Assembly (NCBI GenBank): GCA_949299585.1
Contig: CASGCC010000001.1
Location: forward strand, 1 to 24,000
DNA: 24,000 nucleotides
Reading direction: 5' to 3'
Source of the DNA: an uncultured Bacillota bacterium
Lineage (GTDB): Bacteria > Bacillota_I > Bacilli_A > Erysipelotrichales > Erysipelotrichaceae
The notes below the pieces were generated by a model. That model searched no databases. It saw only the letters and a program-made list of their open reading frames with translations, and was not told the origin of the DNA. Positions within the stretch are counted from its first letter, which is position 1. The number at the start of each line of letters is the position of its first letter. Made by a program: the position numbers and the translations under genes. Below are positions 3,492 to 23,133 of the stretch, in pieces.

Positions 3492-3499
3492 AATCCTCC

Positions 3500-5586: not shown

Positions 5587-5594
5587 ATTCTCCT

Positions 5595-7668: not shown

Positions 7669-7683
7669 ATTTCTCCTTTTAAT

Positions 7684-8595
7684 TTAACGTTTGACAGATT
7701 TTGCCATGCTCATATACGTATGTCTTGCACCACGAATAGCTAAGCCATAATGATAGATATTGTCAAAACGTTCAACATTTGCATCTCCAATATGATGAAT
7801 ATCCGTTCCGCTCATCTTGCACATCAACGCTATTTGATTTATTGTTTCCTTGCTAGCTCCTTCTTGTGAAGTGCCAATGGCTGTCATTGTCAAAGCCCCT
7901 AAAGCATGAGCATATTTGACCATTTTTTGGATATAGTCTAATCCAATACCAGGAACTGTCCCAGGTGATGGCATGCAGATGATATCTGCGCCAGCATCTA
8001 CAAGTTCTTTGATAAGACCTTCGTTGATGATATTTTCTCCAGCATCATCTACGCTACCTGCTGCATGCATCTTACCTGCCATCAATATTATCTTGTCTTG
8101 GCAAAGTGGCTTGATCTTCTTTAAGGTTTCTACAATTTTCGCATTGGTTACGCCTGTTCCTGGATTTCCCGTTAATAAAATTATATCTGCGCCTAATTCA
8201 ATAGCTCTTTCAACGGTCTCAACAGTAGCCAAACGTCCTTTAGCAATTTCATCAATTTCCCCCATTGCTACAACTTTGGGATCGACCGGTTCTAAATTCA
8301 CCCCAACTATCCTACCTGTAAGTTCTTTAACACGTTTAATAGCTAAAGACTTATCTGTAACATCGAGACCTGGAATCATTGGATCAAATACATCTAGCCA
8401 ATTATATAGGATGATATCCGCGCCAAATGCACTCTTAAGTTCAGCATCTGTTATTCCATGTATTACTGATGCTGGCGAAATTACTGTTGATTCAGTAGCA
8501 ATTATCCTTCCTTCACTTGCTCTAATGCTTTCTAGCATCTCTTTAGGTGTCATTTTCGCTATTTGAGAAGCATAACAATTCAATAATCTTTTCAT
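7684..8595 (-). CDS. Conserved hypothetical protein, probably a (beta/alpha)-barrel enzyme of unknown function
   Basis: 303-aa ORF with RBS AAGAGG 5 nt upstream. It shows an alternating strand/helix pattern with Gly-rich loops (LLTGNPGTGV, MPSPGTVPGI, AGKMHAAG). I could not assign a family from memory. Confidence 0.5.
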   Translation of the reverse strand: MKRLLNCYASQIAKMTPKEMLESIRASEGRIIATESTVISPASVIHGITDAELKSAFGADIILYNWLDVFDPMIPGLDVTDKSLAIKRVKELTGRIVGVNLEPVDPKVVAMGEIDEIAKGRLATVETVERAIELGADIILLTGNPGTGVTNAKIVETLKKIKPLCQDKIILMAGKMHAAGSVDDAGENIINEGLIKELVDAGADIICMPSPGTVPGIGLDYIQKMVKYAHALGALTMTAIGTSQEGASKETINQIALMCKMSGTDIHHIGDANVERFDNIYHYGLAIRGARHTYMSMAKSVKR

Positions 8596-8614
8596 GATAA
8601 CCTCTTTTTTTCCT

Positions 8615-8642
8615 AAAAAAGGCCTTATTGAATAATAAGGCC
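8615..8642 (-). terminator. Intrinsic-terminator-like hairpin inside the operon, between the transporter module and the enzyme module
   Basis: On the minus strand: GGCCTTATT-ATTC-AATAAGGCC followed by TTTTTT, beginning 7 nt after the stop at 8650. The RBS and ATG of the next gene follow within about 20 nt. Confidence 0.6.
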
Positions 8643-8649
8643 CTTTTTG

Positions 8650-9180
8650 TTAATAACAAACTTCAGCTTTAACCTTTTCTAAATCTGCAGTGTTATTTAC
8701 GGTATTATAGATCAATCTGCATAATGCAGCATAACTATCATTCAATCCTGTTCCACCTTTTTTAGGCATGATAACAATTGGTGTCTTATCTTTATATTCT
8801 TCGATAACCCCTGCATTTTCTTTAGACATCATTGCACAAGATTTTACAGTAGTTTTTGATAATATGTTAGCCGAAATCATTGCAGCCATCTTGGCATAAT
8901 CAGGGAAATTGAAGCAAGGGCCACATACCACGAAGTCAGGATTCAATTTTTTGCACATTGCCGTCATCTTGGTAATTACTTCATCTTGATTATTTAAGAA
9001 ATATTCATTTCCACAATATAAGGTTGCAACTACTTCAGCTCCGATTTCTTTAAAATGAGATTCGATCATCAAAGCTGAACCGATTCCGCCTTTAGCAGCA
9101 TTTAATCCCACATTAGGATTTGATTTCCCACCAGCGCCTGCTAAACCCTGGTCAAACACTAACACAATTTTCATAATCAT
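8650..9180 (-). CDS. Small protein resembling the N-terminal domain of the glycine/sarcosine/betaine reductase component B (GrdB) family; function unknown
   Basis: 176 aa. KIVLVFDQGLAGAGG, ATLYCGNEYF and PDFVVCGPCFNFPDYAKMAA resemble remembered GrdB N-terminal motifs (FAGIGGEE, CGD.YF, PD..IAGPAFNAGRYG). The ORF ends at TAA, and the Sec-containing C-terminal part is absent. Its ATG shares a base with the EIIC stop (TAATG). Confidence 0.5.
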   Translation of the reverse strand: MIMKIVLVFDQGLAGAGGKSNPNVGLNAAKGGIGSALMIESHFKEIGAEVVATLYCGNEYFLNNQDEVITKMTAMCKKLNPDFVVCGPCFNFPDYAKMAAMISANILSKTTVKSCAMMSKENAGVIEEYKDKTPIVIMPKKGGTGLNDSYAALCRLIYNTVNNTADLEKVKAEVCY

Positions 9181-10532
9181 TAATCCAAACTTAGATCGTC
9201 AAATGACAAATCATCTAATTCATCCACAGTGTCACTTTGTTTGCTTTCATCTTCTAGATAACGTTTATCTAATAATTTGAAGAATGGATAGTAAATAGCG
9301 ATATCAACAATTAGCATTACGATTTGTACGATAGATCCCATTACAGAACCAGTAACTAAGTATCCAGAGAATACGATTGGAGTGGTCCATGGTAATTGAA
9401 CACCTGATGTAATAGGCATGATACCAGTAATTGTTGCAACATAACCAATAATTGTATTAATACATGGTGTTAAGATAAATGGAATTGCCATCAATGGGTT
9501 TAATACGATTGGTAAACCGAAGATGATTGGTTCGTTGATACCAAAGATAGCAGCTGGTAATGATAATCTTCCTAAGTTCTTCAAACGGTTTGATTTACCT
9601 AAGAATGCCATCATGATAACTAGACCTAATGTAGATCCTCCACCACCGAAGTTACAGAAGAAATCAGAGAAACCAGCTGTGAAGATGTTAGTCATTTCTA
9701 AACCAGCAGCTGCAGCTTCGTAGTTTTCTAATGTCAATGCTTTATGGATAGGACCAAAGATCGTATTTGTAACAGCTGGTCCATTGATACCGAAGAACCA
9801 GAATAATGTTGACAAGAATTGATAGATAACTTCAAATCCAGACAATCTTCCTAAACCAACAAGTGGAGCTTGTAAGATTTCATAAATGAAATAATGAGCA
9901 TACTTATATGGAGTCATTGCAAAAATAATGCCAACAACAAAGAAGAATGTCATTGAAATAGCAGCAGGGATCAAAGATGCAAATGAATCCATAACTGCAG
10001 GCGGAACTCCATCAGGAAGCTTGATAACTAAGTTTTTCTTAGTTGCCCAGCAGAACAATTTTACAGAAATAATTGCAACGATCATTGCAAGGAACATACC
10101 AGCTGTTCCTAAGAATGTGAAACCTAAACCACTGAATTTTGCAGCTTCAGCAGCACCTTCAACCACAACTTCCATTCTTTGAGGAGTAATGATCAAGAAA
10201 GATACTAATGCAACAACTCCACCAGCGATCTTATTTTCAACACCTTGTTCACGAGTATAGCAGTAACCAATACCTAAGCAGCTTAATAATGCAGTACAGT
10301 CAAATGCAATTGCACTAACTCGGCCTAAATATGCATCCCAACCTGCACCAAAGATAGATGTCATTAGATCCAAGAAACCTTGAACTGGGAAGTTAGAAAT
10401 CAATAAGAAGATTGAACCAACGATAGTAATAGGAACTGTAACCAAGAAACCATCACGGATCGCTGATAAGATTTTGTTTTTTGATAGCGCGTTAGCAACC
10501 GGCATCAAAAACTTTTCAAGTTTTGCCATCAT
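9180..10532 (-). CDS. PTS EIIC, lactose/cellobiose/chitobiose family, with an acidic C-terminal tail
   Basis: 450 aa. The N-terminus (LEKFLMPVANALSKNKILSAIRDGFLVTVPITIVGSIFLLI) is typical of CelB/ChbC-type EIIC. About 10 TM segments. The C-terminus is EDESKQSDTVDELDDLSFDDLSLD. Confidence 0.9.
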   Translation of the reverse strand: MMAKLEKFLMPVANALSKNKILSAIRDGFLVTVPITIVGSIFLLISNFPVQGFLDLMTSIFGAGWDAYLGRVSAIAFDCTALLSCLGIGYCYTREQGVENKIAGGVVALVSFLIITPQRMEVVVEGAAEAAKFSGLGFTFLGTAGMFLAMIVAIISVKLFCWATKKNLVIKLPDGVPPAVMDSFASLIPAAISMTFFFVVGIIFAMTPYKYAHYFIYEILQAPLVGLGRLSGFEVIYQFLSTLFWFFGINGPAVTNTIFGPIHKALTLENYEAAAAGLEMTNIFTAGFSDFFCNFGGGGSTLGLVIMMAFLGKSNRLKNLGRLSLPAAIFGINEPIIFGLPIVLNPLMAIPFILTPCINTIIGYVATITGIMPITSGVQLPWTTPIVFSGYLVTGSVMGSIVQIVMLIVDIAIYYPFFKLLDKRYLEDESKQSDTVDELDDLSFDDLSLD

Positions 10533-10537
10533 AAGCG

Positions 10538-10858
10538 TTAATTATTCCTTTCCTTATAAAGTTTTAATGCTTTTTTCAACACACGTTCACCATCAACATT
10601 ACCATAGTCAACGCTGTCAATAACTGATACGACATGTTCTTTGCCATATCTTTCATTTACTTTATCGTATAAGTGTTTAACCTGTGGGCCCAGCAAGATT
10701 ACTTCAGGATTAAACTCATTTACGATATCAGCCATCTGAGAATCTGGATAAGCCTTGATCTCAACTGGCAGTTTGTTTGCGTCTGCAACCTTTTGCATCC
10801 GGCTTGCCAATAAGCTGGTAGACATTCCGGCGTTGCAGAATAGATAAAATCGTTTCAT
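10538..10858 (-). CDS. PTS EIIB, lactose/cellobiose family
   Basis: 106 aa. The active-site Cys sits in the context YLFCNAGMSTSLLASRM. A strong RBS (AAAGGAGGG) lies upstream. Confidence 0.9.
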   Translation of the reverse strand: MKRFYLFCNAGMSTSLLASRMQKVADANKLPVEIKAYPDSQMADIVNEFNPEVILLGPQVKHLYDKVNERYGKEHVVSVIDSVDYGNVDGERVLKKALKLYKERNN

Positions 10859-10891
10859 CTATATCCCTCCTTTTGTACTTAAATGATAGCG

Positions 10892-10897
10892 ATTTTA
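10892..10897 (-). promoter_or_regulatory. Candidate -10 box (TAAAAT) of an internal, probably activator-dependent promoter for EIIB-EIIC
   Basis: TAAAAT on the minus strand lies about 30 nt upstream of the EIIB RBS. The corresponding -35 position reads AAAAGT (poor). A palindromic motif is centred about 44 nt upstream of the predicted start. Confidence 0.35.
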
Positions 10898-10913
10898 AAC
10901 TTGTTAAAGAAAT

Positions 10914-10939
10914 CACTTTTTTCCTATTTGTTAGGAAAT
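10914..10939. promoter_or_regulatory. Palindromic motif copy 2: TTTCCTA-N5-TAGGAAA followed by AAAGTG (candidate operator/activator site)
   Basis: Minus strand ATTTCCTAACAAATAGGAAAAAAGTG. It overlaps the stop codon of the RDD gene and shares TTTCCTAA....TAGGAAAAA(A)GTG with the site at 14279-14306. Confidence 0.5.
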
Positions 10940-11458
10940 CTTTGCATGATCGATTACTTTAGTATGCACAATACGATCGTGGATCATCCTAAATCCATGT
11001 CGATGATCAACAAATAACATGATCAAGCTTGCACAGCTCAAAATGATCATTGCATAATTTAGCAACAGCAAACATATCTTAAAATCCGGAATTAACAACA
11101 ATAAAGAACTACGGATATTACTTGAAGGAATAAACAGCATGCCTTCCATGATCAAGCATCCCAAAAAATAGCGAATCATTAAAATTTTAAAGTTGATATC
11201 TTTATCATTATCCCTAACGATTCTTAGATACATTGCCCTTTTCATCAAGGTTTGACCTTTCCAGATCTTGTCAGGAACCAAGACATAATAAAGATAAGCA
11301 ACGACCAATGATGATATGATGATAGCGATATAAATGCCATTCGCAAATCCCATGAACTTACTAATCCCATTAGCCAACAGATTGATCAAAATGGCAGAAA
11401 TATACCAATCTGCGCCAAAAGCAAAGAATCTTCTAACTAAATAAGCAAAAATTTTCAT
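10931..11458 (-). CDS. RDD family membrane protein (copy 2, more divergent)
   Basis: 175 aa. RRFFAFGADWYISAILINLL at the N-terminus, G.TL.KR...LRIV in the middle and 3-4 TM segments give an RDD-domain-like layout. Confidence 0.6.
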   Translation of the reverse strand: MKIFAYLVRRFFAFGADWYISAILINLLANGISKFMGFANGIYIAIIISSLVVAYLYYVLVPDKIWKGQTLMKRAMYLRIVRDNDKDINFKILMIRYFLGCLIMEGMLFIPSSNIRSSLLLLIPDFKICLLLLNYAMIILSCASLIMLFVDHRHGFRMIHDRIVHTKVIDHAKIS

Positions 11459-11464
11459 GATTTA

Positions 11465-11770
11465 TTATTTATTTTTATAAAGGTCGATGATTTCATTAGC
11501 TAAGATCTTGATCGTTTCAGCAGCCATCAACTGATCTTCAGCATGCATCAACAACAAACATACTTCGGTCTTTTCCCCTGCTGCTTCTTTTTGGATCAAA
11601 CCTGCATGAGCATGATGACCATTGATAAACACGCTTTCTCCATGTTTTATCAATTCCTCAGCTTTAGCAAATTCCCCTTTTTTTGCTGCCTCGATTGCGG
11701 CGATATAATCACTTTTTGCTTCGCCAACAGCTGAAATAATTTTAAAACACAATAATTCCATATCTTCCAT
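11465..11770 (-). CDS. PTS EIIA, lactose/cellobiose family
   Basis: 101 aa all-helical protein. Motifs are LLCFKIISAVGEAKS, GHHAHAGLIQKEA (phospho-His region) and LLLMHAEDQLMAAE. Confidence 0.9.
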   Translation of the reverse strand: MEDMELLCFKIISAVGEAKSDYIAAIEAAKKGEFAKAEELIKHGESVFINGHHAHAGLIQKEAAGEKTEVCLLLMHAEDQLMAAETIKILANEIIDLYKNK

Positions 11771-11782
11771 ATCATTTACCTC

Positions 11783-12349
11783 CTATTCCGTGGTTTTTTC
11801 TACCACAATGCTATGGGCTAAAATATCATGAATAGCTTTTTGTTTTCTGATTACCAACAAACAAGAAATCACAAAAACTGCCAACATCATGTAAGTAATG
11901 ATTGTTCCTGCCTCTTTGATCGTAATCATTCCCACCATTTGCGCAATATAATTCCCTGCCAAGATAAACGAGCTCTCAGCTATCATTACTCCTAAAATTT
12001 GCCGAATTGCCAATGCTCGAGCATTTAACTTGCCGCCATTTTCATCAACGATCCGAATGCCTAAGAATTTTTTACCTAATGTTTGACCATCTTTAATCAA
12101 CGGGAAAACATAATAATACAATATTCCAAATAAGACCCCTAACATCCCAGCAATAAATCCATACGGATGTTCAAATAGCGTAATATCTGTATTAATTTCC
12201 ATCTTTTGCGTTATTAGGGTCCACATATATGCAACAGGTATAGCTGTAAATACCCATCCCAGATACCAATCGATCAAATATGCAAATATGCGCTTATTTA
12301 ATGGAGCATTTTTCAAAAGTTGTCTTTTTTCCTTTTTCATTTTAAGCAT
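11783..12349 (-). CDS. RDD family membrane protein (copy 1)
   Basis: 188 aa. NKRIFAYLIDWYLGWVF and DGQTLGKKFLGIRIVDENGGKL are RDD-domain hallmarks. The start region overlaps the regulator stop by 8 nt; an alternative ATG lies at 12340. Confidence 0.7.
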   Translation of the reverse strand: MLKMKKEKRQLLKNAPLNKRIFAYLIDWYLGWVFTAIPVAYMWTLITQKMEINTDITLFEHPYGFIAGMLGVLFGILYYYVFPLIKDGQTLGKKFLGIRIVDENGGKLNARALAIRQILGVMIAESSFILAGNYIAQMVGMITIKEAGTIITYMMLAVFVISCLLVIRKQKAIHDILAHSIVVEKTTE

Positions 12350-14240
12350 CCTTACCTTTTATCAATTGAATGAATTGCTTGGCTGATTTTGCTTCAGTAA
12401 TATTAGCCATGAGCATGGCATTATCACTAATATCGCCAAACCAATCAAAAAATACTTTTAGCAAATTTTTTTCATCATCTTTTATGGCTAACAATAGAAC
12501 AAATTTAACCATATAATCTCCCCATTTGATTGGTTTTTTTAAGATGGCAATCCCTATGGTTGACTTTAATGTCGCATAATCCAGCGGATGCGGGATAGCA
12601 AATCCATAATTAAATGATGTGTGTGCTATTTTTTCTCGTTCAAATGTCGATTGTTTAAAATTGCTCTTGACTCTTTTATTGGCATAAAGCTTATCGCACA
12701 TGATATTAATTACTTCCTGATAGTCTTCACATTCCAAGTTATAGAAATAGCATTCATCGCTTACAAGCTCTTTGACACAAGAATAGAAAAGATCACGGCT
12801 CCGTCGGCTATCTAATTCGTTTATCGCTTTTGAAATCTTATATTCATCATTAGAATTTACAAACATGCTGATATTAACGACCGGAATGGTTAAATTTGAA
12901 GTAAGATGCACGGTAGTTAAGATCAAATCAAGATTCATCCGTTCAAGCATATTATCTTCATAATAATCGGTTACTTCATCAATGACCAAGCGATCGCCAA
13001 ACTTATCACTGATTTTCTTATAACAAATACTAGAAAGCATGCGCCCATTAGGCTGAATCAAGATAGCATGATAGTATCGTTTGGTATTTAAACGGTCATA
13101 TGCAGCTCCGATATGAATCGCAAGATATCCTAGCTCATCTTCTTGAATCTTGATATCTACCATATCTTCAATTATTCTGCCGATAAATATGCTCATTTCA
13201 AATACCAAAGGATAATTCTTTTTTATTTCATTAAGATATACATTAGAAACAGCAATACCATTAGCAAGGCGTTCTAATAAATTTTGAATATGAATATTTA
13301 AACCATTTTGAAAAAAAGAATCATTTGAAAAATCAATGTCATATTGTTTCTTGATGCCTTCAATGATCATTGCCGTAATTTCTTCGGCAAGCTTGCTATA
13401 TACCTCGCTAGAAATAAACTCTTTAGCTCTTCTTCCTAACAACAAACTAGCAAACAGCTCTACTTCATTATCATTGATTTCGATTCGTAAGAAACTAGAT
13501 ATTTTTTTAAAAAAATCAGCTGCTATGAGATATTCGATCGTTTCTTTGATTTCATGCTTTCTTTTGATATCAATATAATTTGCATTGATCATTCTTTCGA
13601 TAGCTACTCCTACATGAATGATCAGCATTGGATAAGATTCTTTACGAATGCTGTAATCATATTCCTGCATGATATTTTCCAATTCATCTTTGACCCTTAT
13701 CAAATTAAGATTTGGAAACAATTCTGCAATTTTATTAATATTTACAAAATCTCCTTGCGTTTCACTAGCAAGCATTTGTCGATACAATGAACGTTTGCTT
13801 ACTTCAGTTCCCACCAATGAAATATAATTCCCATCTTTTATTAGCTCTAGATCTTTATAATTATCTAAAGTTTTAACAATTGTTTTCAGATCGTGCTTAA
13901 GGGTAAATTCACTGACAAATATTTCATCTTGTAGATCAATCAAGTTCAGACGATTTTTCTTGAACAATAGCTCTACGATAATATATTTACAGCGTTCTTG
14001 TGCGGTTTGCGGAATATCATTTTTGGCAATAAGATTGCTTTTTATCAGTAGATCCTTTTTTACACAATAACCATTACGCACATTCGACAAGATCAAACCT
14101 GGATATTCATTATTTATCGCTTCAATGTCATTACGAATCGTCCTGTCAGATACGTTAAGCATTAAGGCTAATTCCTTTCCTGTTATCCATTGACCTTTTT
14201 CATTTAATTTCTCGATGATTTTGTATTGTCTCTTATTCAT
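12342..14240 (-). CDS. PRD-containing transcriptional regulator of the LicR/MtlR/ManR type (HTH, PRD1, PRD2, EIIB-like domain, EIIA(Mtl/Fru)-like domain)
   Basis: 632 aa. The N-terminal HTH is ITGKELALMLNVSDRTIRNDIEAIN. PRD His contexts are LIIHVGVAIERM, LNIHIQNLLERL and YLAIHIGAAYDRL. The C-terminal EIIA-2 motif is GFAIPHP. Confidence 0.85.
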   Translation of the reverse strand: MNKRQYKIIEKLNEKGQWITGKELALMLNVSDRTIRNDIEAINNEYPGLILSNVRNGYCVKKDLLIKSNLIAKNDIPQTAQERCKYIIVELLFKKNRLNLIDLQDEIFVSEFTLKHDLKTIVKTLDNYKDLELIKDGNYISLVGTEVSKRSLYRQMLASETQGDFVNINKIAELFPNLNLIRVKDELENIMQEYDYSIRKESYPMLIIHVGVAIERMINANYIDIKRKHEIKETIEYLIAADFFKKISSFLRIEINDNEVELFASLLLGRRAKEFISSEVYSKLAEEITAMIIEGIKKQYDIDFSNDSFFQNGLNIHIQNLLERLANGIAVSNVYLNEIKKNYPLVFEMSIFIGRIIEDMVDIKIQEDELGYLAIHIGAAYDRLNTKRYYHAILIQPNGRMLSSICYKKISDKFGDRLVIDEVTDYYEDNMLERMNLDLILTTVHLTSNLTIPVVNISMFVNSNDEYKISKAINELDSRRSRDLFYSCVKELVSDECYFYNLECEDYQEVINIMCDKLYANKRVKSNFKQSTFEREKIAHTSFNYGFAIPHPLDYATLKSTIGIAILKKPIKWGDYMVKFVLLLAIKDDEKNLLKVFFDWFGDISDNAMLMANITEAKSAKQFIQLIKGKDA

Positions 14241-14278
14241 ACTTCTATCTTACTTTCTTTAGCTTGTATATAGCTTCA

Positions 14279-14306
14279 CACTTTTTCCTAGCTATTAGGA
14301 AAAAAA
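14279..14306. promoter_or_regulatory. Palindromic motif copy 1: TTTTTCCTA-N5-TAGGAAAAA followed by GTG, in the leader of the regulator gene
   Basis: 9-bp perfect arms (14282-14290/14296-14304). It lies between the predicted promoter (14325-14352) and the regulator ATG (14240). Confidence 0.5.
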
Positions 14307-14324
14307 CTGCAATTTAGCAAAAGC

Positions 14325-14352
14325 ATTATACCAAAGAGTTTTTTACGTTCAA
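14325..14352 (-). promoter_or_regulatory. Sigma-A-type promoter of the regulator/PTS operon
   Basis: Minus strand: TTGAAC (14352-14347), 16-nt spacer, TGgTATAAT (extended -10; TATAAT at 14330-14325). It sits directly downstream of the yitT-2 terminator. Confidence 0.65.
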
Positions 14353-14370
14353 ATACCACAAAATATTCTC

Positions 14371-14392
14371 AAAAAAAAAGCCCGTAGGCTTT
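14371..14392 (-). terminator. Intrinsic terminator of YitT paralogue 2
   Basis: Minus strand: AAAGCC-TACG-GGCTTT followed by T6. The stem overlaps the stop codon. Confidence 0.65.
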
Positions 14393-15266
14393 AATCAATA
14401 GGTTTCAGATAGAAATGACCATAGAAATTTTCCGTTTTAAAAGTATTGATGATCGCATGAGGATCAACTTCCAAGATAAGCTGAGCAACATCTGCGACTT
14501 CATAGCTAGAAACTACGGTATGCAGCAAGCTCATCGGAGCCTTGCTATAACCGCCAGTTCCATCTAAACGCGATAATCCATGGTGATAATGCGTAATATA
14601 TGCTTCGATGACTTCATCAGCTCTTGCTGTGGTAATCTGCATCGTCATCCGTTCATAGCGATGATAAAAGGAATCGATCGTCTTGGTTGAGATCAACTGA
14701 AATAAGATCGAATAACCTGCGTATTCCCAGCCAAACATTGCACCAAAGATGATGATCAAGATCGTATTAAATACGAAAACTTGTCCCCATATCGACTTTC
14801 CCTTTTTATTTGAGATATATAAAGCGATAAAATCTGTACCACCTGTCGAGGCATTGCCTTTTAAGGCCAAAACGATCATCAAACCATAAGCAAACCCGCC
14901 AAAGATGATATTTAAAAATTCCCCATCAAATAACGGCCCTAGATCTAATACCCGCAAAAATAAGCTAGCACAAAATACCTGCAACAAGGAAAAAGCTGTA
15001 AAACGCTTGCTGATGGTCTTGCTGCAAAACCAAGCTACTGGGATATTCAACGCTAACATCCCCAAAGATGTAGAAAAAGAAAAGCCAAAAAAGGTGCTGG
15101 TAATCTTCGATATCAAGATCGCTACTCCAGTAAACCCACTAGATAACAAATTGATCGGATCCATAAAGATCTGGATTATGGCAGCTTGTAAAAAGCCAGA
15201 CAAAACCACACAACAAAAAGTAAATAACCAGCGAGCTCTTTTATCATTACGTAATTTTTGGATCAT
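14391..15266 (-). CDS. YitT family membrane protein with DUF2179-type C-terminal domain (paralogue 2, monocistronic)
   Basis: Collinear, without gaps, with the ORF at 778-1653. The ORF track begins at 15296, but the ATG at 15266 (MIQKLRNDK...) is preceded by GGAGGG at 6-nt spacing and gives the same 291-aa length as the paralogue. Confidence 0.8.
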   Translation of the reverse strand: MIQKLRNDKRARWLFTFCCVVLSGFLQAAIIQIFMDPINLLSSGFTGVAILISKITSTFFGFSFSTSLGMLALNIPVAWFCSKTISKRFTAFSLLQVFCASLFLRVLDLGPLFDGEFLNIIFGGFAYGLMIVLALKGNASTGGTDFIALYISNKKGKSIWGQVFVFNTILIIIFGAMFGWEYAGYSILFQLISTKTIDSFYHRYERMTMQITTARADEVIEAYITHYHHGLSRLDGTGGYSKAPMSLLHTVVSSYEVADVAQLILEVDPHAIINTFKTENFYGHFYLKPID

Positions 15267-15351
15267 CGATAGCCCTCCATAAATATCACTCAACAATTAT
15301 AGTATCCTAGCTTTGAAAATATCTTCCCTTTTAGCAGATGAATGACCACTT

Positions 15352-15890: not shown

Positions 15891-17063
15891 TTATTGCTTG
15901 GTATATGCTAGTTTTCCCTGTACGAAGGTTCTTTGGACATCTGCCTTATGATCCATCAGGATGATATCCGCATCCTTGCCCGGCGCTAAGGTGCCTTTGA
16001 ACTTATCAACCATGGCAACGATGCTTGGATTTACGCAAGCCATCTGCACGATTTCTTTGATGCTGCAATTACTGATAGCCATCATGCTTTTTACCATATC
16101 ATTCATCCCATAGGCTGAGCCCGCTATCCTGCCGGTTGCTTTTACGCGCACATGTTTTCCTTCTTTTTTACATCTTAAGCCACTAAAAATATATTCTCCA
16201 TCTGGCATATCCTTACCTAGCATGGCATCAGTGATCATAACGATGCGCTTAGCACCAAATTGTTTATAGGTTGCTAGAACGACCGCTTCATCGACATGAA
16301 ACCCATCACATATCAGCTCTGCAAAGGTTTCTGTTTCGATCATTGCCCCGGTAACACAGCCGGGATCTCGATGCAGATGCTGGCTCATCGCATTATATAA
16401 ATGCGTAAAGCCTGTAGCTCCGGCTTTGACGGCATTTGAGACATCTTTGGCCCTAGCATTGCTATGGCCAAGCATGATAATGACATCATGCGCCACAGCA
16501 TAAGCTATGAACTTTGCCATGTCCCTTAATTCCGGAGCAACCGTCATGATCTTCAAACGCCCTTTGGCATGTTCTAACATTTCGCTAAATTCTGCGATCG
16601 AAGGATCTTTGATATAACGCTCATCCATCAAAGCCTTATATTCTTTGCTGATAAAAGGACCTTCCGCATGCACGCCTAATAAATTTGCTCCATTTTCGAT
16701 TGGTTCTATCTTGGCATAACGATCAAGGATCGCCAACATCCTAGGATGATCTACCACCGTTAAGCTTGCCATGAATGATGTACAGCCATCTTTTACGATA
16801 TTTTTAGCCACCGTAGCAACAGCTTCTTTAGTACCTTCGATCAAGTCTTTGCCCTTTGCGCCATGCATATGGATATCAATAAAACCAGGCAGGACATAAA
16901 GACCATGGGCATCGATAAATTCCCCATCACCATCAGCATATTGCTTATAACCATCTTCCTTGCCGATTGCGGCGATCTTATCATCAATTATGACGATATA
17001 TCCCTGATCATATTGGGTCTGACCATCTAGAACGATATTGCCATTATATATTATCTTTTTCAT
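15891..17063 (-). CDS. nagA: N-acetylglucosamine-6-phosphate deacetylase
   Basis: 390 aa with motifs GFIDIHMHGAKG, TVAPE, LGHSNA, THLYNAMS, DGFHV and ITDAM. Confidence 0.9.
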   Translation of the reverse strand: MKKIIYNGNIVLDGQTQYDQGYIVIIDDKIAAIGKEDGYKQYADGDGEFIDAHGLYVLPGFIDIHMHGAKGKDLIEGTKEAVATVAKNIVKDGCTSFMASLTVVDHPRMLAILDRYAKIEPIENGANLLGVHAEGPFISKEYKALMDERYIKDPSIAEFSEMLEHAKGRLKIMTVAPELRDMAKFIAYAVAHDVIIMLGHSNARAKDVSNAVKAGATGFTHLYNAMSQHLHRDPGCVTGAMIETETFAELICDGFHVDEAVVLATYKQFGAKRIVMITDAMLGKDMPDGEYIFSGLRCKKEGKHVRVKATGRIAGSAYGMNDMVKSMMAISNCSIKEIVQMACVNPSIVAMVDKFKGTLAPGKDADIILMDHKADVQRTFVQGKLAYTKQ

Positions 17064-17067
17064 GGCA

Positions 17068-17760
17068 TCATCCCATTTTTGCCTTGCTAAAATCTTCTAG
17101 GATCTTTAGGGCACTGCTAGTGCCGATACGTGTTGCCCCCGCTTCCAACATCTGCCTACAAGTTTCCCAATCCCGGATCCCTCCGGCCGCTTTGACCATT
17201 ACCTCATCTTGAACAACTTCTTTCATCAATCTAACATCTTCGACCTTAGCACCGCCACTTCCAAAACCTGTGCTGGTCTTGATGAAATCCGGCTTAACTT
17301 TCTTAGCAATTTCAGCTAATTTTCGTATTTCCTCGCATGTTAAATAACAGTTTTCAAATATCACCTTGCAGATGACCTTATGATCATGACATAGCTTGGT
17401 TATTTCTTTCATCTCTGTTTCGATATAAGCCCAATTATGCATCTTAGCTTTAGCAATATTGATGACATAATCGATCTCATCAGCGCCATCAGCAATCGCT
17501 TTAGCTGTTTCAGCAAGCTTGATCTCCAAAGTAGTTTGTCCTAAAGGAAATGAAATTGCCGCACCTACATGAACGTTTGCGCCTTTTAACAATTCTTTGC
17601 ATAATGCAACATCTGCAGAATTGATCGCAACCATAGCTGCGCCTATTTCCTTAGCTTCTTGACATAATTTCTTAAAATCATCATCCGTCGCATATGGCTT
17701 TAACAAAGTATGATCAAAATAGCTAGCTAGTTGTGCTTGAGTTAGATCTTGTATCTTCAT
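17068..17760 (-). CDS. deoC: Deoxyribose-phosphate aldolase family protein
   Basis: Motifs are YFDHTLLKPYAT, DEIDYVINI, the Schiff-base Lys in FIKTSTGF, KAAGGIR and GATRIGTSS. I chose the third ATG (17760), 7 nt after AGGAGG, over the ORF-track start at 17781. Confidence 0.85.
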   Translation of the reverse strand: MKIQDLTQAQLASYFDHTLLKPYATDDDFKKLCQEAKEIGAAMVAINSADVALCKELLKGANVHVGAAISFPLGQTTLEIKLAETAKAIADGADEIDYVINIAKAKMHNWAYIETEMKEITKLCHDHKVICKVIFENCYLTCEEIRKLAEIAKKVKPDFIKTSTGFGSGGAKVEDVRLMKEVVQDEVMVKAAGGIRDWETCRQMLEAGATRIGTSSALKILEDFSKAKMG

Positions 17761-17846
17761 CATCATTCCTCCTTTGTTCATATCTTAATTATATTTTACA
17801 AACAAATATCAAAGCCCAGCAAGCAAATAAAGACAATTAATTTCAT

Positions 17847-18572
17847 TTATTTTGTTGCTTTTGAAGGATGATTTTCGACCAGGTAAGCATTATATCCATA
17901 GGAACATATATGGATAAACCAAAGCAAGCAAATAATAAGCAAAGGTAACAACGAAAATCCTTCTAAACCAGATAACAACAAAAATATCGAAGCCATGATG
18001 GGATAAATCGAAAACATTAGCTGCGATGATCTAAAAGCAGCTTTTTCACTAATGGCTTTCAACGCCTCATCCATCTGATCGTTCCATTTTTGGGCAAATT
18101 TCATATCATAAATGGAAGCATTGATTTCCGGATGCAGATCTTTGGCAAGTTTTGCAACCTTAATTTCCATAAATATATTTATCAACAATAGACATGCTAC
18201 AACCGTTAAACAAATCAAGCTGATAAGCTTATTTATAGATCCCGTATATGTTGCGCTACAATAAAACAATAATGGCAACGCAACTAACGTTAAATTAGAA
18301 GCTATGCAAGCAGCCCTATTGGCAATATCATAATTATCATCGTTTATTCCATGTTTGATCAAGCGTTTGCTCTTTTGATAATAGCCCAATGATATGATCG
18401 TTATGATCAAAGCTATGACGCCACCAACACGCCCTATTGCCAATAAAATATATTCGATACTTATCTCATTCAAGCTTACAGCTAATGCATCCAACACGAA
18501 ATAAGCTATGGCACCCCCAATAGCACACAAACATAAAACCAAATAGAAAAAAGCCTTTTTACTCATCCTCAA
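17847..18572 (-). CDS. Polytopic membrane protein of unknown function, partnered with an XRE regulator (DUF3169-like arrangement)
   Basis: 241 aa with about 6 TM segments. Its start overlaps the upstream XRE gene by 14 nt. The family assignment is from memory only. Confidence 0.5.
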   Translation of the reverse strand: MRMSKKAFFYLVLCLCAIGGAIAYFVLDALAVSLNEISIEYILLAIGRVGGVIALIITIISLGYYQKSKRLIKHGINDDNYDIANRAACIASNLTLVALPLLFYCSATYTGSINKLISLICLTVVACLLLINIFMEIKVAKLAKDLHPEINASIYDMKFAQKWNDQMDEALKAISEKAAFRSSQLMFSIYPIMASIFLLLSGLEGFSLLPLLIICLLWFIHICSYGYNAYLVENHPSKATK

Positions 18573-18899: not shown

Positions 18900-18925
18900 A
18901 AAAAAGGTGCACGCGTGCACCTTTT
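18900..18925 (-). terminator. Intrinsic terminator of brnQ
   Basis: GC-rich palindrome AAAAGGTGCACGCGTGCACCTTTT with a flanking A/T run. It overlaps the brnQ stop codon. Confidence 0.7.
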
Positions 18926-20240
18926 AATCAACAATCATCATATCTTTTATTTTAGCATATAGATAGCATGCTGCCGCAATGACCAGACCAACGATGCTCC
19001 AGCCAATGCCTAACTGATAAAATGGCAGCTTGGCGCAAATATCACTGATCAATGGCAAGCTGATATTTAAACCATCCAGGGCATAAATCACGCTAACGAT
19101 ACCTACTCCTAAGATCGTTAACGGGTAGATATATGGTATGTCTTTGATATGCTCATCACATAATCCCAAGATGATCAAGACGATAGCGATCGGATAAATG
19201 GCATTTAAGACCGGAACCGAAATGCTTAAGATCGTATTTAATCCCTGATTGCAGATTACAAAGGCAAAAAGCGTGATCATGACCACAAATTGACGATAGC
19301 TAAAGCGTTTGAACAAGCCCGCAAAATACTGCGAGATCGATGTAATCAAGCCTACGCAGGTCGTTAAACAAGCTAGGGAAAAGATCATCGCCAAGACGAT
19401 AGCGCCAAATGACCCAAAAACATCTTCAACGATACAGCGCAAGGTCCATGCTCCATTTTCCCTTAGCGCATATAAGCCTGAAACTTCCATGCCCATATAA
19501 GCTAACATCAGATAGATCAGTGCAAGGATGATGCCTGCAAAGATCCCACATACCAAGGTATAATGCATGATATCTTTCTTGCTTGAAATATTGAAAGAAG
19601 AGATGGTCGCAGCAATAACAAAACCAAAATTAAGGGCTGCGATCGTATCCATCGTATTATAACCTTCTAAGAAACCTACCACTGCTGGTGCATCCGCATA
19701 GCTTGCCTGTGGCAATGCTATGGCGCTATGACCTTTAAACAAAAAACTTACAAACAAGAAAATGATCAAGATCAACAAGCTAGGCGTCAAGACCTTACCG
19801 ATCCTTTCTACTAATTTATTCGGAGTCAACGCCAACCAGATCGCAATTGCAAAAAAGATGCCCGAATAGATCAGCATATACAAGGTCAAAGGACTACTTG
19901 CTGGTAAATATGGGGCAACAGCCATCTCAAAAGGTACCGAAGCCGCTCTAGGGATCCCTAATCCCGGGCCGATCGAAAGATAGATCAGCAAAGTAAAGAT
20001 CAAGGCAAATTGCGGATTAACCTTGGCAGCTAACTGCTGCAAACCATCAAATTTAGCCACGACCACAACACCTAGTACCGGCAATGCTACTGCGGTAATT
20101 AAAAAGAATAAAATGGCTACCGGCATGTTAGTGCCTGCATTTTGGCCTAAGAAAGGCGGAAAGATCAAATTACCAGCTCCAAAAAATAGAGAAAATAACA
20201 TAAAGCTGATCAAGATCATTTGTTTTTTTGTTAGTCGCAT
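18924..20240 (-). CDS. brnQ: Branched-chain amino acid transport system II carrier protein (LIVCS family)
   Basis: FSLFFGAGNLIFPPFLGQNAG and about 12 TM segments. The start is set at ATG 20240 (MRLTKKQ), 7 nt after AGGAGG, rather than the ORF-track start at 20273. Confidence 0.9.
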   Translation of the reverse strand: MRLTKKQMILISFMLFSLFFGAGNLIFPPFLGQNAGTNMPVAILFFLITAVALPVLGVVVVAKFDGLQQLAAKVNPQFALIFTLLIYLSIGPGLGIPRAASVPFEMAVAPYLPASSPLTLYMLIYSGIFFAIAIWLALTPNKLVERIGKVLTPSLLILIIFLFVSFLFKGHSAIALPQASYADAPAVVGFLEGYNTMDTIAALNFGFVIAATISSFNISSKKDIMHYTLVCGIFAGIILALIYLMLAYMGMEVSGLYALRENGAWTLRCIVEDVFGSFGAIVLAMIFSLACLTTCVGLITSISQYFAGLFKRFSYRQFVVMITLFAFVICNQGLNTILSISVPVLNAIYPIAIVLIILGLCDEHIKDIPYIYPLTILGVGIVSVIYALDGLNISLPLISDICAKLPFYQLGIGWSIVGLVIAAACYLYAKIKDMMIVD

Positions 20241-20290
20241 ATTCATACCTCCTTGCATGATCATCCACATCAATGCTTAGCATTTTTCCC

Positions 20291-20333
20291 CATAATATCC
20301 ATTGATATTATGTTAAATTTAGCATATAATTAA
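20291..20333 (-). promoter_or_regulatory. Candidate brnQ promoter with an overlapping perfect palindrome
   Basis: Minus strand: TTAATT (20333-20328), 17-nt spacer, TAATAT (20310-20305). The palindrome CATAATATC-N4-GATATTATG (20291-20312) covers the -10 box and the predicted start site. Confidence 0.35.
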
Positions 20334-20390
20334 AAACACAATTTTTCATTTTCCTACCATTTAGAAACCTTAAACCCCATGAACTTCTTA

Positions 20391-20399
20391 TGATAAAAT
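20391..20399 (+). promoter_or_regulatory. Candidate extended -10 promoter element of the antiporter gene
   Basis: TGaTAAAAT lies 25 nt upstream of the ATG. The -35 region is poor (TAAACC). Confidence 0.35.
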
Positions 20400-20423
20400 G
20401 TTAGAAATAGGCAGGTGATAACG

Positions 20424-22037
20424 ATGAATGAACCTCTTTTACTGGTAGGATGCGTCATTTTTATATCTATATTACTTAATAACTTATTAGCAAAAGTGCC
20501 TGTCCCTTCATTATTGATCTTTATTGGTCTAGGCATGCTTTTTGGTGAAAACGGCATCTTAAGGATACCTTTCAATGACTATGAAGCCGTCAATGTAGTA
20601 TGCTCCGTTTGTTTGATCTTCATCATGTTTTATGGCGGATTTGGCACTAATATCAAAGTAGCTAGACCTGTCTTGCTGCCGTCCGCCTTGCTTTCAACCT
20701 TTGGGGTAGTGGCAACCGCTGGCGCAACAGCCTTATTTGCTCATCTTGGGCTTTCGTTGCCTTGGTTAGAAAGTTTTCTTATTGGCGCCGTCATTTCTTC
20801 CACGGATGCTGCTTCGGTATTTAATATCCTGCGTTCACAAAAACTAGCTTTAAAATATCATACTGACTCCTTGTTAGAAGTTGAATCTGGTTCTAATGAC
20901 CCCATGAGCTATATGCTTACCGCCGTCGCTGTAGCCTTGCTTAGCGCCCAAACGCTCAATGTGCCGTTGTTGCTTATTCGCCAGATTGGCATCGGCGTCA
21001 TTTGCGGCATAGCGATGGGCTATCTGGCAGTAAAGCTTCTTCATCAACAGTTGCTTCCTAGCCAACAAGATCATACGATCTTTCTGCTAGCCATCATGGT
21101 CCTAGCTTACGCTATCCCCGCTTATTGCGAAGGCAATGGTTATCTGAGCGTATATCTATGTGGGATCTGGATCGGCAACGCTAAACTAGCGCAAAAGAAA
21201 TACTTAAGTCACTTCTTTGATGTATTGACCCATGTGGCTCAGGTCCAGATCTTCTTTTTGCTAGGCTTGCTAGTAACCCCGATAGAATTACCCGAAGTGA
21301 TCTTGCCCGCCATTATCTTGATGCTTTTGCTTACCTTAGTGGTACGTCCCGCTGTTTGTACCATAATATTGCTGCCATTTAAGCCAAAGCTCCAGCAACT
21401 AGCGATGATCTCCTGGGCCGGGTTGCGTGGGGCATCTTCCATCGTATTTGCGATCAGTGCCGTACTTAGCAACGTCAGCATTACCTATAATCTGTACAAT
21501 CTGATCTTTTGTATGGTCATCATGTCCATTTCGATCCAAGGCACCTTGCTGCCTTGGGTCGCTAAGCAGCTAGCCATGATCGATGCTACCGCAGATATCA
21601 ATCATACCTTTAACGACTACCAAGAAGACAGCGATATCAGCTTCATCAAGATCCATCTAGATCCCACCCACAGTTGGTGTCAAAAAACCTTAGAACAATT
21701 GCGCTTGCCATCTGAACTATTGGTATCGATGATCATCCGCAAGGACAACATCGTCATGCCTACCGGCCAAACCATGTTAGAAGCTGGCGATCTGTTAGTT
21801 TTAGCAGCTCGCAGTTTTGATGATCGAGAGCATCTGGTCCTACGCGAAATCGTCGTCGGCCACAAGAAAGCCTACGCCAACATGACCCTTGCGCAAATTC
21901 CCCAAACCCAGACCTCGCGGATCATCCTCATCAAACGTGGCATTGACACCATCATTCCTTCAGGAACAACTATGATCAAACCTGGCGACATCCTGGTCAT
22001 GACCAAATTTTCATTAGAAAGATCCAAAAAGGCTTAG
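20424..22037 (+). CDS. nhaP2: K+/H+ antiporter, NhaP2/CvrA type (CPA1) with C-terminal RCK_C/TrkA-C domains
   Basis: Motifs are IGAVISSTDAASVF and LEVESGSNDP, within a membrane domain of about 12 TM segments. The C-terminus carries two GD(L/I)LV(L/M) RCK_C-like repeats. I prefer the ATG at 20424 (RBS AGGTGA 5 nt upstream) over the GTG at 20415. Confidence 0.9.
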   Translation: MNEPLLLVGCVIFISILLNNLLAKVPVPSLLIFIGLGMLFGENGILRIPFNDYEAVNVVCSVCLIFIMFYGGFGTNIKVARPVLLPSALLSTFGVVATAGATALFAHLGLSLPWLESFLIGAVISSTDAASVFNILRSQKLALKYHTDSLLEVESGSNDPMSYMLTAVAVALLSAQTLNVPLLLIRQIGIGVICGIAMGYLAVKLLHQQLLPSQQDHTIFLLAIMVLAYAIPAYCEGNGYLSVYLCGIWIGNAKLAQKKYLSHFFDVLTHVAQVQIFFLLGLLVTPIELPEVILPAIILMLLLTLVVRPAVCTIILLPFKPKLQQLAMISWAGLRGASSIVFAISAVLSNVSITYNLYNLIFCMVIMSISIQGTLLPWVAKQLAMIDATADINHTFNDYQEDSDISFIKIHLDPTHSWCQKTLEQLRLPSELLVSMIIRKDNIVMPTGQTMLEAGDLLVLAARSFDDREHLVLREIVVGHKKAYANMTLAQIPQTQTSRIILIKRGIDTIIPSGTTMIKPGDILVMTKFSLERSKKA

Positions 22038-22072
22038 CTGATGCTTTTTATCAAAAGTTATCAGCTTTTTTT
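22036..22072 (+). terminator. Intrinsic terminator of the antiporter gene
   Basis: AGCTGAT...ATCAGCT stem, extendable through CTTTT/AAAAG, followed by T7. It starts at the stop codon. Confidence 0.65.
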
Positions 22073-22086
22073 AATTCCATGACAAT

Positions 22087-22114
22087 AAAAAAATCGTCCT
22101 ATGCAAAGGACGAT
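22087..22114 (-). terminator. Terminator helix of the T-box leader
   Basis: Minus strand: ATCGTCCT-TTGCAT-AGGACGAT followed by T7. Confidence 0.85.
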
Positions 22115-22335
22115 ATATTACCGTGGTACCACCTAATTTCCCAAGTATGCTTGGCTTTACACATCTAACAATGTTCATCATCGCTAACGGGACTTGACGC
22201 CGGCTTCCTTACTTATTTCAGGTTGCTTCTAGAAGATGATTTGGGCATATCAGGTCTTTGATCATTTCCACCTGCCATGATCTCTCTGTTAAAGACTTAT
22301 GATAGCTTACTTATTCTTCATCATCGAATTTATAT
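22087..22335 (-). promoter_or_regulatory. T-box riboswitch leader (tRNA-sensing transcription attenuator), apparently complete
   Basis: Elements on the minus strand are listed below.
- GATGA K-turn-like motif and AGTA box.
- AG bulge AGAGA plus distal loop GGCAGGTGGAA (22289-22260).
- Specifier-loop region (22252-22232).
- A second AGTAAGG.
- F-box CCGTTA (22190-22185).
- Stem III CCAAG-CATA-CTTGG (22155-22140).
- T-box sequence AAATTAGGTGGTACCACGG (22139-22121).
- An antiterminator AGG[TGGTACC]ACG..CGTCCT that competes with the terminator. Confidence 0.85.
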
Positions 22336-22340
22336 CATTT

Positions 22341-22369
22341 ATTTTAAATGATGGCTCATGCATTTGCAA
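22341..22369 (-). promoter_or_regulatory. Sigma-A promoter driving the T-box leader
   Basis: Minus strand: TTGCAA (22369-22364), exactly 17-nt spacer, TAAAAT (22346-22341). It lies 12 nt downstream of the ABC ATPase stop codon. Confidence 0.7.
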
Positions 22370-22380
22370 TCCAGAATTAA

Positions 22381-23133
22381 TTATTTAAATAAATAAAATT
22401 CATGATCATCTTCGATACAGCGAATCTTTTGCATCTGAAAGATCTTTTCAGGGATATTATTTGCGATAAGCTGTTCAGCATCTCCCTGAAAGATCAATTT
22501 TCCTTGATCCATGACCAGGATGATATCAGCTAATTCTATGGCTTGATTGATATCATGTAAGATCGTTATCACGCTCTTTCCTTGCAAAGGACATGTCTTT
22601 AAAGCCTTAAGCATATGTTTGACGTAAGGAACATCTAAATTTGCCGTTGGCTCATCAACTAACAAGATCTTGCTTTGTTGACAAAGCATCATTGCAAAGA
22701 AAGCTTTACGCCTCTCGCCCCCTGAACACTGATCGATCCGCCGATCAGCAATATCCATCAACTGATGCTCAGCTAACAATTCATCAACGATCTGCTTATC
22801 CTTCAAACTTAAACGCCCACTATAACCAACATAAGGGTGCCGTCCAAAAGAAACTAGCTTACGCAAGCTAACTGGAGGCTGCGGCAAAGATTGCGGCATG
22901 GTTGCTATTACCTTTGCCTTTTCCAATAACGGCATTTTCTTGACATCCTGCCTATCGATCAGTACTTTGCCATCATAGCGGATATTTTGATTGATTGCGC
23001 GTAGCAAGGTCGTCTTTCCACTGCCGTTTTTACCTAATATGACCGCTAGCTTACCATCAGGTATCACAAAAGACACTTGATCTACCAATATCTTTTTATT
23101 TATCCTTACTGTAAGGCTTTCACATTCGACCAT
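22381..23133 (-). CDS. ABC transporter ATP-binding protein, FecE/FepC/BtuD-like (iron-chelate/cobalamin importer type)
   Basis: 250 aa. Walker A is GKNGSGKTTLL, the signature is CSGGERRKA and Walker B is ILLVDEPTANLD. It overlaps the upstream permease gene by 14 nt. Confidence 0.85.
   Translation of the reverse strand: MVECESLTVRINKKILVDQVSFVIPDGKLAVILGKNGSGKTTLLRAINQNIRYDGKVLIDRQDVKKMPLLEKAKVIATMPQSLPQPPVSLRKLVSFGRHPYVGYSGRLSLKDKQIVDELLAEHQLMDIADRRIDQCSGGERRKAFFAMMLCQQSKILLVDEPTANLDVPYVKHMLKALKTCPLQGKSVITILHDINQAIELADIILVMDQGKLIFQGDAEQLIANNIPEKIFQMQKIRCIEDDHEFYLFK

Follow-up and report, generated by a model that had tools for sequence, protein, structure and literature searches.

The stretch of DNA analyzed here, which we call the window, comprises 24,000 nucleotides of an uncultured bacterium of the Erysipelotrichaceae (contig CASGCC010000001.1, positions 1 to 24,000). 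Towards its right end lies a T-box leader, a tRNA-sensing riboswitch, that reads on the minus strand into the 3′ end of nhaP2, a convergent gene for a K+/H+ antiporter; beyond nhaP2, on the same strand as the leader, follows brnQ, which codes for a branched-chain amino-acid carrier of the LIVCS type. A sequence-only reading of the window had described the T-box as complete and equipped with its own promoter but left with no gene to regulate, and had proposed that it controls the antiporter through an antisense RNA. We find instead that it is very probably the isoleucine-specific (AUC) leader of brnQ, displaced from its gene by a lineage-specific insertion that carries nhaP2. The locus contains the following elements:

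22341..22369, minus strand: promoter of the T-box, with the -35 hexamer TTGCAA (22369..22364), a 17-nt spacer and the -10 hexamer TAAAAT (22346..22341); promoter scan, 9/12 matches.
22103..22333, minus strand: T-box leader, with Stem I, specifier loop, Stem II/IIA-B region, Stem III and antiterminator; RF00230.
22238..22240, minus strand: specifier codon AUC (Ile), with the conserved purine A next in line at 22237; Rfam alignment.
22121..22139, minus strand: T-box sequence AAATTAGGTGGTACCACGG with the UGGU bulge, which predicts a tRNA with discriminator base A; read from the sequence.
22087..22114, minus strand: intrinsic terminator of the T-box, with the stem ATCGTCCT/AGGACGAT, the loop TTGCAT and a T-run; terminator scan and a second scan of our own.
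20256..22086, no strand: lineage-specific insertion of 1,831 bp, in place of 7 nt (TGGCTTT) that belonged to the ancestral T-box-brnQ spacer; alignment to the empty sites of two other loci, L096 and L001.
20424..22037, plus strand: nhaP2-like gene for a K+/H+ antiporter of the NhaP2/CvrA type, 537 residues, ATG at 20424, ribosome-binding site AGGTGA.
20302..20330, plus strand: promoter of nhaP2, TTGATA-17-TATAAT, inside the insertion; promoter scan, 11/12 matches.
22036..22073, plus strand: intrinsic terminator of nhaP2, a bulged hairpin of 12 bp (22037..22065) followed by a run of seven T.
18924..20254, minus strand: brnQ, with the Shine-Dalgarno sequence AAGGAGG at 20254..20248, the ATG at 20240 and the end of the stop codon at 18924.

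When the window was searched with Rfam (cmscan), the T-box family RF00230 was the only one to match above its gathering score. The match reached 99.5 bits, above the gathering score of 93 (E = 3.8e-21), and extended over model positions 1-219 of 219; the sequence-only reading had named this search as a check on the element, and the full model was indeed covered at a score above threshold. The copies of the leader in the other strains that bear the insertion score 99.5-100.4 bits. All of the motifs that had been listed for the element were found in the sequence, as was the promoter: Stem I contains the GATGA K-turn motif, the AGTA-I box, the AGAGA bulge and the distal loop GGCAGGTGGAA, and the AGTA-II box, the F-box CCGTTA and the T-box sequence AAATTAGGTGGTACCACGG are also present. 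In the Rfam alignment the same leader shows GAUGA, AGUA, ACAGAGAGA and the distal loop GGCAGGUGGAA, together with a specifier loop reading CAA-AUC-A, so that the hallmarks of a T-box Stem I (GA/K-turn, specifier codon followed by a purine, AG bulge and distal loop) are all in place. Moreover, AAAUUAGGUGGUACCACGG aligns to the antiterminator helix, and the UGGN bulge and the antiterminator typical of the family are thus both represented. The terminator has a stem of 8 bp (22114..22093), and its region folds with -13.8 kcal/mol (z = -2.5). The 5′ arm of this stem lies within the antiterminator helix and is common to both structures, so that antiterminator and terminator are mutually exclusive, as had been claimed. 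The minimum-free-energy fold of the whole leader was uninformative (z = -1.07), as expected of a two-state RNA, and for this reason the covariance model was used instead. Judged by its sequence, the element is a genuine T-box whose specifier stands for Ile.

In Firmicutes, carriers of the LIVCS/BrnQ type are known to be under T-box control (Wels et al., 2008; PMC2494555), and the element in the window resembles the Ile T-box leaders described there in its RNA family, its AUC specifier and its cognate gene. It differs from them in that 1,831 bp with a gene on the opposite strand lie between its terminator and the ribosome-binding site of brnQ. The product of brnQ scores 466 bits with PF05525 and 389 bits with TIGR00796 (cut-off 243), and exactly this protein is already on record. 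The gene is co-oriented with the T-box and lies 1,847 nt past the U-tract, with the opposite-strand gene in between. It is correct that nothing coding lies directly 3′ of the T-box, where only three features follow: an ATG frame of 9 codons (22080..22051), the hairpin that terminates nhaP2, and the stop codon of that gene. The sequence-only reading, however, did not look as far as brnQ, 1.85 kb further on the same strand, and its statement that the leader has no gene to regulate does not hold.

To place the leader among its relatives, we used 80 brnQ loci taken from species-representative genomes. In all 10 of the loci from Erysipelotrichaceae, Bulleidia and Coprobacillaceae that were tested with Rfam, a T-box match ends about 40 nt before brnQ (11/11 when L096 is included). 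A regular expression located the T-box core motif in about 55 of all 80 loci, 70-130 nt 5′ of brnQ. The specifier column reads ATC in about 50 of these 55 T-boxes and GTC in a few. The GUC leaders include those of L034, L073 and L078, in which GUC (Val) replaces AUC (Ile) at the specifier position, a specifier switch inside one orthologous pair of leader and transporter. The leader of the window shares 92.9% identity with the brnQ leader of L001, the closest species (BrnQ 86% identical in amino acid sequence), and 86.2% with that of L002; the corresponding figures for the brnQ coding sequence are only 79.7% and 75.3%. The AAATTAGGTGGTACCACGG motif is unchanged across L001, L002 and L096, and the promoter hexamers are kept as well (TTGCAA/TAAAAT in L001, TTGCCA/TAGAAT in L002). 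The identity of the leader, together with the position of the T-box next to brnQ in the relatives, makes the T-box of the window the orthologue of the brnQ leader. On this comparison, the T-box belongs ancestrally to brnQ, and its normal place is directly in front of that gene.

A T-box leader is expected directly 5′ of a gene for an aminoacyl-tRNA synthetase, amino-acid biosynthesis or transport. The leader of the window does not lie in such a position, whereas its counterparts in L001, L002, L096 and 8 other loci do. We therefore regard it as a member of the T-box family in a disrupted context. The sequence-only reading had suggested that the junction be examined in related genomes, where a normal open reading frame immediately 3′ of the element would speak against its proposal and for a rearrangement; brnQ is that reading frame. 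No CodY box was found near brnQ, and the motif is rarer in the window than expected by chance. Matches to the glmS ribozyme and the thiamine pyrophosphate riboswitch occur a few kb 5′ of brnQ in other loci (L001 1224-1371, L023 3423-3522, L026 3401-3500); these are ordinary and unrelated to the T-box.

How the leader and brnQ came apart is seen in L096, a locus of a sister species. Its gene order is FecCD-FecE-T-box-brnQ-HTH (helix-turn-helix)-DUF3169, that is, the flanks of the window minus nhaP2, and its T-box scores 98.5 bits. The empty site reads ...AGGACGATTTTTTTTGGCTTTCAAGGAGGTAGGATATG in both L096 and L001, and the junctions of the window read ...AGGACGATTTTTTT, then 1,831 nt, then CAAGGAGGTATGAATATG. 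At base resolution, L096 1452|1460 corresponds to window 22087|20255. The insertion thus sits exactly between the U-tract of the T-box and the Shine-Dalgarno sequence of brnQ, with the riboswitch and the translation-initiation region of brnQ both intact, and it consists of nhaP2 with its own promoter and its own terminator in the orientation opposite to T-box and brnQ. The same structure was found in four further assemblies, each from a different sample: L081 and L082, which match the window at 100% identity, and L088 and L095, which match it at 97-99%. The samples that bear the insertion (ERZ17292902, ERR10610566, ERR11533709 and ERR11531875) were assembled with different pipelines, and L096 is a separate contig in ERZ17292902, a metagenome that also holds a contig of the window type. 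From these alignments, the insertion is a derived state found in a single species-level lineage, and it predates the divergence of the strains of that lineage, which amounts to roughly 3% at synonymous sites. A recent insertion between T-box and brnQ accounts for the orphan, antisense look of the leader, which is therefore not evidence for a new kind of regulation.

The inserted cassette has no signs of a mobile element at its ends, where neither terminal direct or inverted repeats beyond chance nor a transposase were detected. Its gene product contains the domains Na_H_Exchanger (PF00999, 140 bits) and TrkA_C (PF02080, 68 bits) and matches NF003716 at 527 bits (cut-off 355); exactly the same protein occurs on contigs from other samples. 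Homologues of nhaP2 outside the clade are at most 84% identical and are found in unrelated contexts with no T-box near. The closest of them, L084, is 84% identical in amino acid and 74.6% in nucleotide sequence, but only over the coding sequence, the flanks not being common to both. The cassette may have come from a relocation within the genome or from horizontal acquisition. As to older lineages with the insertion, protein searches with NhaP2 and BrnQ returned only members at least 99% identical, and a metagenome scan gave nothing closer than 78% identity and no T-box beside nhaP2. The nhaP2 promoter is spanned by a palindrome (20302-20333) with arms of 19 nt that are 79% complementary, and the opposite strand of this palindrome yields a weak candidate promoter, TTTTAA-17-CATAAT, aimed at brnQ. 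Possibly, the palindrome represents overlapping, back-to-back divergent promoters.

We then compared the fate of the leader with that of its surroundings. With L002 as the outgroup, promoter and leader accumulated 9 substitutions on the branch of the window and 8 on that of L001, none of which breaks a pair; in the same comparison brnQ accumulated 97 and 102. Six leader changes are specific to the window, and they fall at unpaired positions or strengthen a pair (22281, G·U to A-U). Variation among strains was assessed with three closely related haplotypes bearing the insertion and a T-box core of 246 nt. A single site of the 246 is variable, 22103, in the loop of the terminator. This is less than at neighboring synonymous sites (31/1057, 2.9%; Fisher p = 0.01). 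The pattern is suggestive of continued constraint on the T-box after the insertion, but not conclusive, as it derives from three haplotypes. The ratio of nonsynonymous to synonymous variation (pN/pS) between strains is 0.11 for brnQ and 0.19 for nhaP2. Both genes are thus under purifying selection, and both are presumably expressed. The neutral yardstick was drawn from four flanking genes only. Pooling the synonymous sites of the entire shared region was rejected because nagA, deoC and DUF3169 are recombinant (synonymous divergence, pS, 0.10-0.25). Between the window and L088, these three genes (15891-18566) have a synonymous divergence of 0.10-0.25, in contrast to 0.02-0.05 for the adjacent brnQ, nhaP2, fecE and fecCD, a difference that points to a recombination mosaic within the species.

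In the ancestral layout, which sister species still have, the T-box stands between fecE and brnQ, with the U-tract of its terminator about 20 nt before the Shine-Dalgarno sequence of brnQ. From what is known of the family, charged tRNA-Ile would allow the terminator to form and give a leader RNA of about 245 nt, and uncharged tRNA-Ile would pair with the AUC codon and the UGGU bulge, stabilize the antiterminator and let RNA polymerase continue. The structure of the leader is undamaged, and the T-box is therefore expected to have remained functional. Read-through would now enter nhaP2 in antisense, and in principle could proceed for 1.85 kb into brnQ, as two scans detected no intrinsic terminator on the minus strand between 22087 and 20241. 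That such read-through reaches brnQ and adds materially to its expression we consider close to, if slightly below, an even prospect; the remaining expression of brnQ would be owed to weak promoters within the insert. Any effect on nhaP2 is considered here as an unselected by-product of collision or antisense pairing.

Several observations weigh against a leader that still serves brnQ across the insertion. The strong promoter of nhaP2 (11/12) fires head-on into the read-through transcript; the polymerase would have to cross the nhaP2 terminator hairpin in reverse; and 1.8 kb of untranslated RNA would be open to Rho, if the organism has Rho. The hairpin folds with -12.3 kcal/mol on the plus strand and -11.4 kcal/mol on the minus strand, where the T-run is offset by 5 nt, and our own scan scored it as a terminator on the plus strand only. 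Just 5′ of brnQ, moreover, there are promoter candidates with 8/12 matches (20336..20307, TTTTAA-17-CATAAT), which could free brnQ from the T-box. Compared with local intergenic sites alone (8/429), the low variability of the T-box core is not significant (p = 0.10), and the evidence for constraint after the insertion, coming from three close haplotypes, is thin. An intact T-box would be equally expected if the insertion were merely recent.

These points lead to the main rival explanation, namely that the T-box is a decoupled relic. The promoter of brnQ would then lie in the right end of the insert (20256..20423) and be the only one to drive the gene, and the T-box, intact just because the insertion is recent, would yield a short terminated leader and an occasional abortive antisense RNA devoid of function. 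We give this explanation considerable weight, if somewhat short of even. The weak minus-strand candidates (8/12) are found 60-100 nt 5′ of brnQ, and homologues of nhaP2 often have a divergently transcribed neighbor (L084, L089 and L094), so that the 168 nt carried along 5′ of nhaP2 could include a divergent promoter. The clade bearing the insertion is shallow (local pS about 0.03), convergent transcription and the long untranslated stretch disfavor read-through, and against intergenic sites alone the low variability of the T-box is not significant. On the other hand, the promoter scan found no minus-strand promoter with at least 9/12 matches 5′ of brnQ within the insert, no intrinsic terminator was detected on the path to brnQ, and the deficit of variable sites relative to neighboring synonymous sites, with the single change confined to a loop, speaks against a relic.

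It also seems possible, if unlikely, that the leader has been co-opted as the switch of a T-box-gated excludon. Under Ile limitation, uncharged tRNA-Ile would open the switch, and a single transcript of about 3.4 kb would then cross nhaP2 in antisense and also act as an inducible mRNA for brnQ; the expression of nhaP2 would fall, by collision or duplex formation, while that of brnQ rises. The excludons of Listeria (Sesto et al., 2013; reviewed in PMC7154746) have this geometry, in which one transcript is antisense to one gene and the mRNA for the next co-oriented gene. They join genes of opposing or related functions, however, whereas nhaP2 and brnQ have no evident relation and the shared transcript of the window is a prediction. 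If true, the excludon would couple cation/proton homeostasis to the cation-coupled uptake of branched-chain amino acids, and it would be the first demonstration of a T-box acting at a distance and in antisense.

The proposal of the sequence-only reading was that the T-box is a dedicated, selected antisense regulator, by which uncharged tRNA-Ile gives rise to an antisense RNA that represses nhaP2. By the layout, any read-through must indeed be antisense to the convergent antiporter gene, and the geometry fits: following the criteria for antisense-acting riboswitches of André (2008), Mellin (2013) and a census of representative genomes (PMC9943018), a complete switch with its own promoter (22369..22341) ends at 22087, its terminator 50 nt from the nhaP2 stop codon, which ends at 22037 on the other strand. 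Riboswitch-gated antisense RNAs have also been shown experimentally in two cases, the S-box riboswitch 3′ of ubiG-mccBA in Clostridium acetobutylicum (PMC2566862) and the B12 riboswitch that drives AspocR in Listeria monocytogenes (reviewed in PMC7154746). Like the T-box of the window, these are terminator-type riboswitches with their own promoter, facing a convergent gene, whose ligand-dependent read-through is antisense. In both, ligand and target are metabolically linked and an effect has been demonstrated, whereas in the window no link between tRNA-Ile charging and K+/H+ antiport is evident, the layout is not conserved and any antisense effect is hypothetical. The arrangement goes back to one insertion in one clade of at most about 3% divergence, whose sister species has the empty site; the leader is orthologous to that of brnQ; and among about 93 further loci with an nhaP2 homologue that were examined, not one has a T-box nearby. 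Nor does the T-box sequence show adaptation to its new context, with about as many changes on the branch of the window as on that of L001 (9 and 8). We thus find no comparative or functional support for starvation-controlled antisense regulation of the antiporter and consider it improbable. The view that an antisense arrangement of a T-box had not been described is outdated as well: the census of 2023, a computational count, has 107 antisense-oriented T-boxes beside 15,851 sense-oriented ones, which is no enrichment (P = 1.00; PMC9943018).

Finally, a chimeric join that placed nhaP2 between T-box and brnQ, a general possibility for metagenome-derived sequence for which nothing specific speaks here, can be set aside almost entirely, since five assemblies (the window and the four others, two of them haplotypes diverged by 1-3%) share the same junctions and the empty-site sister species forms a contig of its own in ERZ17292902.

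The locus is thus another case of a known kind, a T-box split from its canonical gene by an insertion. In Bacillus thuringiensis YBT-1518, a transposase gene is inserted between a T-box and a gene for a Trp transporter (Figure 3A of PMC9943018), and the authors of the census explain the transposase cases by random insertion between riboswitch and canonical gene rather than by selected regulation (PMC9943018). There, too, a canonical T-box has come to lie antisense to the inserted gene while relatives keep the pair of riboswitch and transporter. The insert of the window differs in being a non-mobile cassette without repeats or transposase, carrying a housekeeping-type K+/H+ antiporter. Moreover, the insertion is fixed in several strains, both flanking genes remain under purifying selection and the empty site is exactly resolved.

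The boundary 5′ of the T-box was examined as well, and adds one further element to the map:

22381..23133, minus strand: FecE-like ABC (ATP-binding cassette) ATPase, last gene of the upstream fec-type operon; Pfam and NCBIfam.

Only 11 nt separate the end of fecE from the -35 hexamer of the T-box, and the terminator scan found no terminator-like site between the fecE stop codon (22381) and the T-box promoter. The fec operon therefore lacks a terminator of its own, as the sequence-only reading had noted. FecE holds the same position at L096 and the same is true of that ancestral-type locus, so that the feature is not special to the genome of the window. In L001, the fec operon is absent 5′ of the brnQ T-box and a relic of 39 nt of the 3′ end of fecE is left (L001 5645-5683), whereas L096, with a BrnQ of the same type as L001, keeps the whole of fecE (404-1156). 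The boundary just 5′ of the T-box has thus been rearranged a second, independent time.

Elsewhere in the window, a block of about 12 kb (2400-14390) is missing from L088 and L095. It encodes the EIIA, EIIB and EIIC components of a phosphotransferase system (PTS), a PRD-type regulator of 632 residues, M42 and M20 peptidases, an asparaginase-like protein and others. Paralogous YitT/DUF2179 genes flank it (778-1653 and 14391-15296), and in L088 and L095 cutC adjoins a DUF2179 remnant of 59 residues. The block looks like a strain-variable island that came or went as the duplicated yitT-like genes recombined with each other.

For an orphan riboswitch such as this one, neighboring genomes should be compared before a new mechanism is proposed; here, the comparison recovered both brnQ and the exact insertion. 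The locus also constitutes a natural experiment, with an empty-site species and an insertion-bearing species in the same metagenome and with both the switch and the transporter intact. Given transcript data, it could show whether a T-box can keep control of its gene across 1.8 kb of head-on transcription, and whether antisense RNA that a riboswitch gates by accident makes a measurable difference; both questions concern the origin of antisense-acting riboswitches and excludons.

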